Shown in pieces: positions 15,501 through 18,929 of a stretch of DNA of 64,000 nucleotides. A program made the translations under genes and the position numbers. The number at the start of each line of letters is the position of its first letter. The first letter of the stretch is position 1. Where the stretch lies: positions 1 to 64,000 of the forward strand of contig CAXHJY010001034.1 in assembly GCA_964016885.1 (NCBI GenBank), written 5' to 3'. A model generated the notes under the pieces. That model saw nothing but the letters and a program-made list of their open reading frames with translations. It was not told the origin of the DNA and made no database searches. Source of the stretch: Eledone cirrhosa. Taxonomy: Eukaryota.

Positions 15501-18500
15501 CTGTTTCTCATTTTTGGGTGACGTACTCGGAGATTTTACTTGAATATCGTTTTCAGTTTTTACAACTGGCTGTTCACTGAAAATAACAGATTCTTTACTC
15601 GATGATGCCTTCGGTGGCTCTTGATTTTCAGATCTAATTGATGTGTCTACTGCGCCAGGAGATTTAGCCGCTAATCTCTGATCATCATCTCTGTCATTAA
15701 GCATTTGATCCGAAGGATCATCTGTCAAAGAAGTTTGACCATTTGCTTTAGAGATTTGTGACGGCGCTTTTTTAGTGCTTTTCTTTTTCATCTTTTCTCT
15801 AGCGGAAGTATCGCTTACACTTTCACTGAACAGTTCAAATTCGGAGATTGGAATTGGACTTCCATCACCTCGCGGGGTTCTTGCCAAATCAACTTCATCA
15901 TTAAACCCTTTTCTTGCTGGAGTTTCACCGAATGATCCTGGTATGGGGAAACAAAGGGAACTTTTCAAAGAATCTATATTAGTTGCAAGAGATCTTTTCA
16001 ATGATCGATATGGACACTCAGGCGATGAGGAAGTGGTGTCATGTCCGACAGAAGTACTGTACGTCAGAACTTTGGTACATTTATTCAAAGGAAATGCTGA
16101 TTGCTTATCTTTCGTACACTTTACACTCGCTATACTATCAGATGTGATAGAGAGTTTGTCATATTTTGAGATATCACCAAACATATTTCTTATTTTAGGA
16201 TTTCGTCGATATTCTTCTGAAAGCGATTTGTCTGTTTTTTTCGACAAAGTATCTCGACATTTTATTTTAGTTACCTTTTTCCCACATATACATTCCTGCA
16301 TCGGATCTGTAGTAAGAGTCTCAGAAGCAGAACCAATATTACGACCAGAACCAATACTACGACCATGACTATAACTATGGCTATGACCAGAACTAGGAAG
16401 ATGGCTATGACCAGGACTAGGACCTTGGTTACGACCAGGAACAGAACTAGGACCATGGCTACGACCAGGACTAGGAGTAGGACCAGGATCAGGAGTAGGA
16501 CCAGAAGTAGGATCAGGATCAGGACTAGGAGCATTACCAGGACTATGGCTACGACCAGGACCATGGCTACGACCAGGACCATGGCTACGACCAGGACCAT
16601 GGCTACGACTAGGACCATGGCTACGACCAGGATCAGAACCAGGAGCATGGCTACGACCAGAATCAGGACCAGGACCAGAACCATGGCTACGGACAGGATC
16701 AGGACCAGAACCAGGACCATGGCTACGACCAGAACCACGACCAGAACCACGACCAGAACCACGACCAGGACCACGACCAGAACCAGGATCAGGACCACGA
16801 CCAGGACCACGACCAGAACCACGACCAGGACCAGGACCATAACCAGGACCATAACCAGGACCATGACCAGGACCAGCCTGTATATCAGAGGGATCTGATG
16901 ACGTATTAGGGCCACCTGGATTTTTTCGTAAACTACCGTGCAGGCGGTTTCTATCATCCATGTTAATCAGTGAGGCTGAGTCTACTTTATTCCACACTAT
17001 ATCCGTTTTCTTTTTACTGATCTTGTGTCGTACTAAAATCCAATGAAGACCAACAAAAGGCAAGTAAAAAAAGAATACTAAATTTAAAGCCCCCATTTTC
17101 TTTCTTGACATAGCTCGAACTCTTTCTTTAGTTTTCGGGTGTATTGGGTAACCGTTTTTATTGTATTTGACGGCTTTATTTTCAATATCTTTATCTAAGT
17201 ATTTTCTCTGAAAGTTGCTTTTTATAAAAACACACAGCCCAACTTCGCCAATGTGAAGGGGGAAACAACAGCCAAAAAGGAATTTTAGCAAGTTAAGAAA
17301 CATTAGGAAAAGAAGGACCATGAGTACAGCAACAAACGTTTCGTCATCCAAACTTATTCTAAGTGGAGTATGCATTGGTTTCATCTTTCTTGCTTCACAT
17401 TTATATTTTGGACCACAACTCCATTTGCAACCGACCAAACATATACATAATTTATCTTTATGTAAAATAATATAATTCGTTTTTACCGTTCTCTGATCTT
17501 CGTTCCATAATTCTGCTTTACATGACAGCGGGAACGATTTTTTAATATCCTTTTGTGGGGTAGTGTCTGTTTGAAAACTTAAATCTAAATTTTGATGAAA
17601 TACAATAGATTCTCCTTGAAATGGTGCCAAATTAATTTTCTTGAGCTGTTTATCCTTTCCACACACCAATGATAGTTTAAAATGTCCTGCAACTAGTCCT
17701 TCGTTCAAAACATTTATACCAATCTCATATTGATTGTCAATGTCTGAAAATGGGTGACTATACAAAGCTCCAATAGCCCCTTCACTTAACAATGGAATAG
17801 CCGAAGTAACAAGACTTTTGTTAAGATTTAAGACAATATCCAGTCGTGTTTGTAGTGAATGTCTTTTATTTTCAGCGAATAACATTGTTTTCGATGTCAG
17901 CCAGCCAGGAATTGAACCTACATAAGGAGGCACTGGTTTGATAAAATGCGATAGAAAATATTTTGATCTGTCAATTTCGCCACCGCTTTTTGATTTCTTC
18001 AGACTATCGTCAACCCAGAAGTTCAGGGGCTGATTTCTGAAACATGTTTTAACAAAGAAATCCGAACAACGTTCCCTCTTTTTCAAAATAGTGTCAGCAT
18101 ATATTCCAGCTGATTCACACGATTCTCCACTTAAATCAAAATATTTTTTCTTAATAAGCAAGTATTCACTAATGCCTCCCATAGTCTGCTGTGTCTGTGA
18201 ACGTTTATTATTTAATGTCGAACTAGCAACGGGTATCAATAAATAAGATAATTTTGAACATATCGATCTTTTACAAGTAATATTTGGCTGCTGAAGAACG
18301 CGGGCCGTGAAATAAAGGTCATTGCTTTGTTCATCGAGAGTTTTGCCGTGGACAAGTAAACGACTGCTTTTTGCAATACTTTTCCATTTAATTTTTTTTC
18401 CAGCTTGTCTGGCTTTTGTCATGACCTCTATCAGAAGGTTCTGAATAACCAAAGGGTTACCAAGCTTATTAACAGAATACCATAAAGGGTCATATAGAAT

Positions 18501-18929: not shown

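Follow-up and report, generated by a model that had tools for sequence, protein, structure and literature searches.

Introduction

The domain II tip of HAP2/GCS1 proteins is reported to hold nine residues that are invariant among 38 members of the family, namely seven cysteines, a glutamate and an arginine (PMC6089408); the arginine lies in the cd loop and corresponds to R185/R163/R176. A glutamine located three residues after F376, Q379, is described as strictly conserved and as part of the network around this arginine (PMC5332557). A third membrane-insertion site, fusion loop 3 (FL3), has been placed where the bc loop begins, and contact of the loops with lipid is reported to trigger trimer formation (PMC9279424). 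The coding regions of strands b, c and d are described as separated by introns (PMC6089408). Here, we describe a homologue of this family, encoded on the minus strand of a 64,000-nucleotide window from Eledone cirrhosa (assembly GCA_964016885.1, contig CAXHJY010001034.1, positions 1–64,000), in which the stretch joining strand c to strand d is collapsed to a few residues. The window is the start of a small contig (C1061) that stands apart from the chromosome-scale contigs of this 3.0 Gb genome.

Whether HAP2 acts on one membrane or on two is described as still debated (PMC8784728, PMC8777248). In Tetrahymena, an R164A variant is reported to retain fusion against a wild-type partner (PMC8777248), and archaeal Fsx1 is described as mediating bilateral cell fusion with a required, uncharged loop of six residues (PMC9259645). 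The HAP2s nearest in sequence to the protein described here are the bivalve "hapless 2-like" proteins of Solemya (KAL5009314.1), Pecten (XP_033735139.1) and Mytilus (CAC5374079.1), and the HAP2/GCS1 structures used for comparison were 7s0k, 5ow3, 5ow4, 5mf1, 6dbs and 6e18. A literature search over titles and the opening parts of abstracts, covering few subscription journals, returned no description of a loop-less HAP2 in octopus, cephalopod, mollusc, squid or tick, and we found no literature on HAP2 in cephalopod fertilisation.

A HAP2 Homologue with a Minimal Domain II Tip

The gene is a single open reading frame (ORF) of 4,138 codons without introns, running from an ATG at 18929 to a stop at 6513 (6513..18929); all parts of it lie on the minus strand, and residues are numbered from this ATG. 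Its N-terminal 717 amino acids (aa) match PF10699 (HAP2-GCS1) with 100.4 bits against a cut-off of 27.4 (E = 1.3e-28), over profile positions 17–468 of 515.

The first-pass annotation had read GYCC, PANAQI and HCILYDPLWY in direct succession at the tip, and this holds (KGYCC-PANAQI-HCILYDPLWY): the collapsed cd connection (18501..18530) is C134-C135-PANAQIH-C143, with CC at 18530–18525 and HC at 18506–18501. Seven residues thus separate the second cysteine of the pair, C135, from the d-strand cysteine C143, compared with 27–38 in bivalve, nemertean and brachiopod HAP2s. The connection lacks fusion loops 1 and 2 (FL1/FL2), the arginine and one cysteine pair, and is predicted to form a four-residue turn. 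BLASTP against the Solemya velum HAP2 placed a 31-residue gap exactly at this point, confirming the proposed loss of the fusion loop, the arginine and the extra cysteine; the gap removes the third cysteine of the CCxC motif, the RGGQDC motif with its arginine and cysteine, and both cd loops. Five of the seven invariant cysteines of the bdc sheet are retained (C107, C118, C134, C135 and C143). Eight cysteines are left in subdomain 2.2, and since the canonical protein is reported to have five disulfides (PMC9279424), the missing cysteines have gone cleanly as a pair.

The candidate glutamate is also kept, as E100 of NQPYE (18632–18630), opposite NNKPYE of the Cyanidioschyzon HAP2 7s0k. It sits in model strand 99–104, in agreement with the conserved strand b glutamate of HAP2. 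The segment that begins with it (18609..18632) includes the shortened bc variable region 1 with FL3 and an N-glycan sequon at N104; the distance from the glutamate to C107 is 6 residues, compared with 13 in Solemya, Pecten, Mytilus, Lingula, Lineus and Tubulanus, so that the FL3 region is 7 residues shorter. The ij loop (18042..18119) keeps its three cysteines, with Lys284 (18080–18078) at the position of the glutamine of the arginine cage (Q379 of CrHAP2) and isoleucine at the position of F376.

Three related proteins were compared with this copy. An intronless paralogue of 806 aa on contig C13 of the same genome is 63% identical and has the tip CC-PLNVQIR-C. P0005, a Logan protein, is 35% identical, with the tip CC-PHVLEAH-C and asparagine in place of the strand b glutamate. 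The closest named match, the Octopus vulgaris hypothetical protein CAI9731296.1 (P0003, 561 aa), is 48–51% identical and belongs to the same clade; some 240 N-terminal residues, the cd loop among them, are missing from its database model, and its tail is short. Word-index homologue searches returned P0003 only, nothing, and P0005 itself. Lysine occupies the arginine-cage position in the window copy, the C13 copy and P0003, and asparagine does so in P0005. The glutamate and cage positions covary, being Glu and Lys in both copies of this genome, Asn and Asn in P0005, and Glu and Gln in canonical proteins.

The protein is a HAP2 descendant that lacks four canonical features: the arginine, the set of seven cysteines, the cage glutamine and the hydrophobic fusion loops. 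The loss is thus more extensive than the first-pass annotation had it: judged by alignment, all three known membrane-insertion sites are lost together with the arginine and the cage glutamine, the FL3 region being shortened.

What remains at the tip bears on whether the protein could still fuse membranes unilaterally in the ordinary way, with its insertion surface moved elsewhere or reduced to a minimum, so that aliphatic c-d turn residues, the bc loop or the ij loop would enter the membrane on their own. The turn keeps a proline and an aliphatic residue in three proteins (P-A-N-A here, P-L-N-V in the paralogue, P-H-V-L in P0005), the net charge of the connection being 0, +1 and −1, respectively. 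An aromatic or aliphatic pair in the ij loop (DFFV, DSFV, DTFV, ESFV) is found in 4/4 short-tip proteins, and HAP2 insertion motifs are reported to vary widely (PMC6089408). Against this stand the count of bulky apolar residues in the cd connection, which is 1 here and 1–2 in the short-tip proteins compared with 3–7 in the 10 long-loop HAP2s scored, and the shortening of the FL3 region as well. We consider a relocated surface distinctly unlikely.

Predicted Structure and Domain Organisation

An AlphaFold2 model built with a 64-sequence alignment (mean predicted local distance difference test score, pLDDT, 84.3) shows a complete domain I-II-III class II fold. In the model, strands c (131–135) and d (140–145) are joined by a tight four-residue turn, which takes the place of the fusion loops at the predicted domain II tip.

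Structure searches placed the model with HAP2. The best Foldseek match was 7s0k (E = 2.6e-24), and the top 8 Foldseek rows and the top 6 VIA rows were all HAP2; after these, the next structural matches were Fsx1 (Foldseek E = 2.6e-14) and EFF-1 (E = 1.5e-11). VIA-align gave a Z of 19.0 against 7s0k (root-mean-square deviation, rmsd, 10.4; 403 residues aligned) and of 14.0 against domain II of T. cruzi HAP2 5ow4 (rmsd 4.0, 206 aligned). ESM Atlas clusters, taken as leads only, scored 0.87–0.89 for HAP2 and 0.86 for EFF-AFF.

Hydropathy and the model together indicate an N-terminal signal, a C-terminal membrane anchor and a tail, as in the HAP2 family. The putative signal peptide covers residues about 1–20 (18870..18929), as judged from a hydropathy peak of 2.3 and model helix 2–23. 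Domains I and II, with the class II fusexin fold, span residues about 30–380 (17790..18840) according to AlphaFold2, Foldseek and VIA-align. Domain III is Ig-like (residues 384–490; 17460..17780) and matches domain III of P. berghei HAP2, 7lr4_D, with a Z of 11.7 (rmsd 2.2, 95 aligned). It is followed in the model directly by a Cys-rich stem and a transmembrane helix (residues 529–555; 17265..17345), leaving no counterpart of domain IV. A second hydrophobic helix (residues 609–639; 17013..17105) comes after a conserved juxtamembrane motif that is common to other animal HAP2s; most of the animal HAP2s aligned also have such a helix behind this motif (window 17013–17265). Since both its flanks are basic, the helix may be re-entrant. 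If it spans the membrane, the giant tail behind it would be extracellular.

The first-pass annotation had proposed, among other possibilities, a mechanistically altered fusexin. This proposal is supported: beside the lost insertion sites, arginine and cage glutamine, the predicted fold, the stem cysteines, the membrane segment and the conserved C-terminal domain are retained.

Second Copy and Assembly Check

The genome searches recovered only two loci of the HAP2 family, the window copy and the C13 paralogue, both of them short-tipped. The upstream region and the first ~50 codons of the window gene (18780..19400) are nearly identical to the C13 locus (about 13991380–13992020): the synonymous difference between the paralogues is 0.087 in codons 1–50 compared with 0.31–0.45 beyond. 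This pattern points to likely gene conversion keeping the promoter and the signal peptide common, and the paralogues may be co-expressed. Contig depth was approximately doubled over the 18780–19400 block in runs X1 and X4, depth being no copy number. C1061 may adjoin the C13 locus.

A decoy acting beside a canonical HAP2 had also been suggested, and this is not borne out, as the only other copy has the same short tip and four genome searches returned no canonical HAP2. The PF10699 search had all 15 of its candidates scored, and its two matches were the short-tip loci; searches with P0013 and P0006 (both with a stricter first pass) and with a 53-residue stretch of the Solemya loop (0 candidates) likewise found none, although such searches match intron-split genes exon by exon and are weak for them, so that the absence of a canonical HAP2 is not shown. 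An EFF/AFF search of the genome gave no match, yet its controls matched nowhere either.

We compared four of the seven sequencing runs. X1 and X2 come from one sample of organism A, from which the assembly itself possibly derives; their contigs span 16950–18892 without gaps and with 0 and 2 differing letters, respectively. The X4 contig (organism B, about 90% identical) covers 17772–18844, also gapless, with 103 differing letters in 1,073; X5 held 3 reads, none of them over the tip. The position of the window on a small contig and the possible common origin of X1 and X2 with the assembly would leave room for an assembly or annotation artefact. An assembly error was nevertheless rejected, as the same short tip is present in the C13 paralogue, the organism B contig and P0005, and an artefact of either kind is extremely improbable. 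A loop hidden in an intron was rejected as well, the DNA being continuous and in frame across the tip. A retrocopy origin of the gene, from a transcript that had skipped exons, is offered as an idea only.

Homologue Survey and Phylogeny

HMMER, run in full over 1.84 billion representatives, returned 114 matches. In the alignment with these HAP2 homologues, the cd spacer could be scored in 43 of the 114: it measured 7 residues in one protein (P0005), 11 in three tick proteins and at least 25 in the other 39. The arginine motif was found in 53 of the 61 matches with a scorable d strand, a count that stands after hand correction of two cancelling errors (P0092, a false pass, and P0113, a false fail). 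Of the eight matches lacking it, three are tick proteins and two come from dragonflies/damselflies and carry huge insertions; the others are P0005, a protein in which lysine takes its place and a truncated model. The cage glutamine was present in 66 of the 70 matches with a canonically spaced ij loop.

Trees were built from 38 and 26 selected rows (FastTree and IQ-TREE). The four short-tip proteins formed one clade (Shimodaira–Hasegawa approximate likelihood-ratio support 100) on a long stem of 1.0. The clade grouped with bivalve HAP2s (0.90 in FastTree, 87 in IQ-TREE), a placement that is not firm because the stem branch is so long. The clade and its bivalve grouping make the short-tip proteins look like the lineage's own HAP2 and not a spare copy, and on our preferred reading the tip was shortened before the octopus copies diverged. 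The tick proteins lay within the chelicerates (97), and the approximately unbiased test rejected their union with the short-tip clade (p = 0.0005); the arginine has therefore been lost at least twice in animals.

The tick HAP2s (P0032 from Rhipicephalus, P0063/P0121 from Ornithodoros and P0092 from Ixodes) lack the arginine and have an 11-residue cd connection with 0 bulky apolar residues; their bc region is short as well, and their ij loop is remodelled. The odonate HAP2s P0033 (Ischnura) and P0065 (Ladona) carry cd insertions of 280–360 residues with no clear RGG motif, and P0065 has serine at the cage glutamine. From these sequences, the odonates possibly represent a third erosion of the arginine site.

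Selection on the window gene was assessed between the two paralogues as the ratio of nonsynonymous to synonymous substitution rates (dN/dS). For codons 51–380, which cover domains I-II, the ratio was 0.51, 0.64 and 0.72 at transition/transversion weights of 1, 2 and 3, with upper 95% limits of 0.69, 0.88 and 0.97. Selective constraint is real but weak.

C-Terminal Tail and Other Window Content

The tail of ~3,500 aa starts with short repeats rich in Gly, Pro, Ser and His, visible directly in the sequence (16350..16877). Behind the second helix lies a polar region of ~3,400 residues with a 17-residue periodicity. Its degenerate 17-residue repeats (7980..13832) are rich in Ser, Arg and Glu and were recognised by their self-identity at lag 17, which is 0.229 compared with 0.079 ± 0.005 in 200 shuffles; they include no hydrophobic segment, the peak hydropathy over 19 residues being 0.63. 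Organism B contigs cover only 15264–16299 within the tail. One X1 contig (depth 3.4) has a 1-base insertion and a 1-base deletion at window positions 10945 and 11091. These are probably contig errors, since the shifted frame carries stops and the window frame fits the repeat pattern.

About 105 aa at the end of the frame (6516..6842) form a conserved C-terminal domain, which is common to bivalve, nemertean, brachiopod and hemichordate HAP2s and matches in 12 other proteins at E < 1e-3, isoforms counted. Its presence at the end of the frame argues that the whole 4,138-codon frame is one real gene. The domain is modelled as a small beta-barrel (pLDDT 85.1); it matched no Pfam family and gave no Foldseek match at E of 0.001 or better. 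The best VIA match was a Tudor domain (Z 5.0, rmsd 2.5, 57 aligned), a weak Tudor/SH3-like resemblance that does not allow the fold to be named.

Elsewhere in the window, an open frame of 1,024 residues at 53732–56806 on the minus strand matches RVT_1 and, weakly, zf-RVT, and is a long interspersed nuclear element (LINE)-type element. Further LINE fragments (e.g., 20261–22800) and long AT microsatellites fill the remainder.

Discussion

Compared with HAP2/GCS1 proteins as a whole, the window protein shares the domain I-II-III order, strand b glutamate, bdc sheet, ij-loop cysteines, stem, transmembrane helix, juxtamembrane motif and C-terminal domain. It differs in its short cd connection, the missing arginine, one cysteine pair fewer, the cage lysine, the trimmed FL3, the single exon and the 3,500-aa tail. 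The loop-less variant is, as far as its sequence tells, a descendant of HAP2. The tick proteins (Rhipicephalus KAL1487266.1, Ornithodoros XP_064484784.1, Ixodes CAN8032015.1) resemble it in the absence of the arginine and of bulky apolar cd residues and in the shortened bc region; unlike it, their 11-residue spacer keeps the extra cysteine pair and their ij loop is remodelled, and their origin is independent.

Two other fusexin groups offer analogies. The first-pass annotation had pointed to a bilateral fusogen like EFF-1, and this comparison is a loose one: C. elegans EFF-1/AFF-1 (PF14884, 4ojd) share the fusexin fold, and the hydrophobic fusion loop and the Arg-Glu bridge are reported to be absent there too (PMC8777248). 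The domain II tip of EFF-1, however, is described as acidic (PMC8784728), whereas it is short and uncharged here, nearer to Fsx1. In sequence, the protein groups with HAP2; the sole Pfam match at E up to 1 was PF10699, and PF14884 was not matched. With its short, uncharged turn, the protein is better likened to Fsx1. Archaeal Fsx1 (7p4l) shares the class II fold, a short uncharged cd loop (SVTSPV according to PMC9259645, compared with the PANA turn here) and several hydrophobic C-terminal segments. This is a resemblance and not membership: the identity is 12%, and domain IV and the Ca2+-shaped loop are described as features of Fsx1 (PMC9259645).

We favour, with a little less than even confidence, the reading that this is an intact molluscan HAP2 descendant acting as a partner-dependent or bilateral gamete-surface fusexin with a minimal tip. 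The arginine and the loops are required in algae and plants and loop-lipid contact triggers trimers, which makes it unlikely that the protein works by the standard unilateral mechanism; either gametes are likely fused in a different way or the protein is used for docking. By analogy with the six-residue Fsx1 loop, the short uncharged turn could make shallow membrane contact or bind a receptor, and the fold-back of domain III would supply the pulling force. Lys284 might pair with Glu100 in place of the lost arginine, and the retention of Glu100 would then be explained, since this pair would replace the Glu-Arg bridge. The tail could serve as a cytoplasmic scaffold. Expression in sperm would be expected from the family, Hydra HAP2 being reported in testis (PMC2766252).

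Several observations weigh against a partner-dependent or bilateral fusexin. The arginine is reported as essential in Chlamydomonas and Arabidopsis (PMC5332557, PMC6089408), and all three Cyanidioschyzon loops are described as contributing to trimer formation (PMC9279424). An N-glycan sequon lies near the tip in both copies and would hinder lipid contact. The genome also has two genes with a DC-STAMP domain, similar in size to DCST1/2, which could supply fusion. The dN/dS of codons 51–650 is 0.60–0.86, with an interval that includes 1 at a transition/transversion weight of 3, domain III reaches 1.0–1.5, and the stem branch of the short-tip clade is long.

Part of this evidence bears on a non-fusogenic docking or scaffold protein, in which the ectodomain would be a rigid stalk or a subunit of a sperm complex and another protein, e.g., DCST1/2, would contact lipid. 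The joint loss of all known insertion elements, the arginine and the cage glutamine would fit such a role, as would the sequon near the tip and the fast-evolving domain III. The two DC-STAMP-domain ORFs are intact and intronless, with 758 aa at C2:71367569 (L019:319-2625) and 683 aa at C3:108879474 (L020:1201-3264), and we read them as DCST1/2 on the basis of their size and a C-terminal cysteine cluster. Like the two HAP2 copies, each consists of a single exon. In a 2026 preprint it is speculated that HAP2 was supplemented, or its place taken, by fusion based on DCST (PMC13192892); since the same source also reports DCST in lineages that keep HAP2, the presence of DCST does not discriminate. 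The refolding architecture and the stem, which the model retains in full, speak against pure docking, and we regard this role, the chief alternative to our reading, as rather unlikely.

The elevated dN/dS and the long stem, together with the repeat-expanded tail and the C13 copy, which lacks the conserved C-terminal domain, could also be signs that the gene is dispensable, with selection on it relaxed, and on its way to being lost. Such decay is very unlikely, given a 12.4-kb open frame that ends in a conserved domain, a short tip shared with a protein only 35% identical, and a dN/dS below 1 in domains I-II.

The preferred reading of a partner-dependent or bilateral fusexin extends to a broader proposal, which we hold tentatively: that cephalopod sperm and egg fuse through a HAP2 without a fusion loop and without the Arg-Glu bridge, and that ticks arrived independently at the same design. 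The cd-loop arginine and the hydrophobic tip are treated as invariant in the HAP2 literature (PMC6089408). If the proposal is true, gamete fusion can be powered by the fusexin spring, bilaterally or via a partner, and the protein would stand as a living intermediate between unilateral HAP2 of the virus-like kind and systems of the EFF-1 or DCST type. It would also mark a possible route from HAP2 to other animal fusion machinery and, for fertilisation in cephalopods, give a first candidate. An animal HAP2 that is natural and intact and lacks the loop and the arginine, apparently the sole form in its genome and with a parallel in ticks, makes the question of action on one or on both membranes directly testable.

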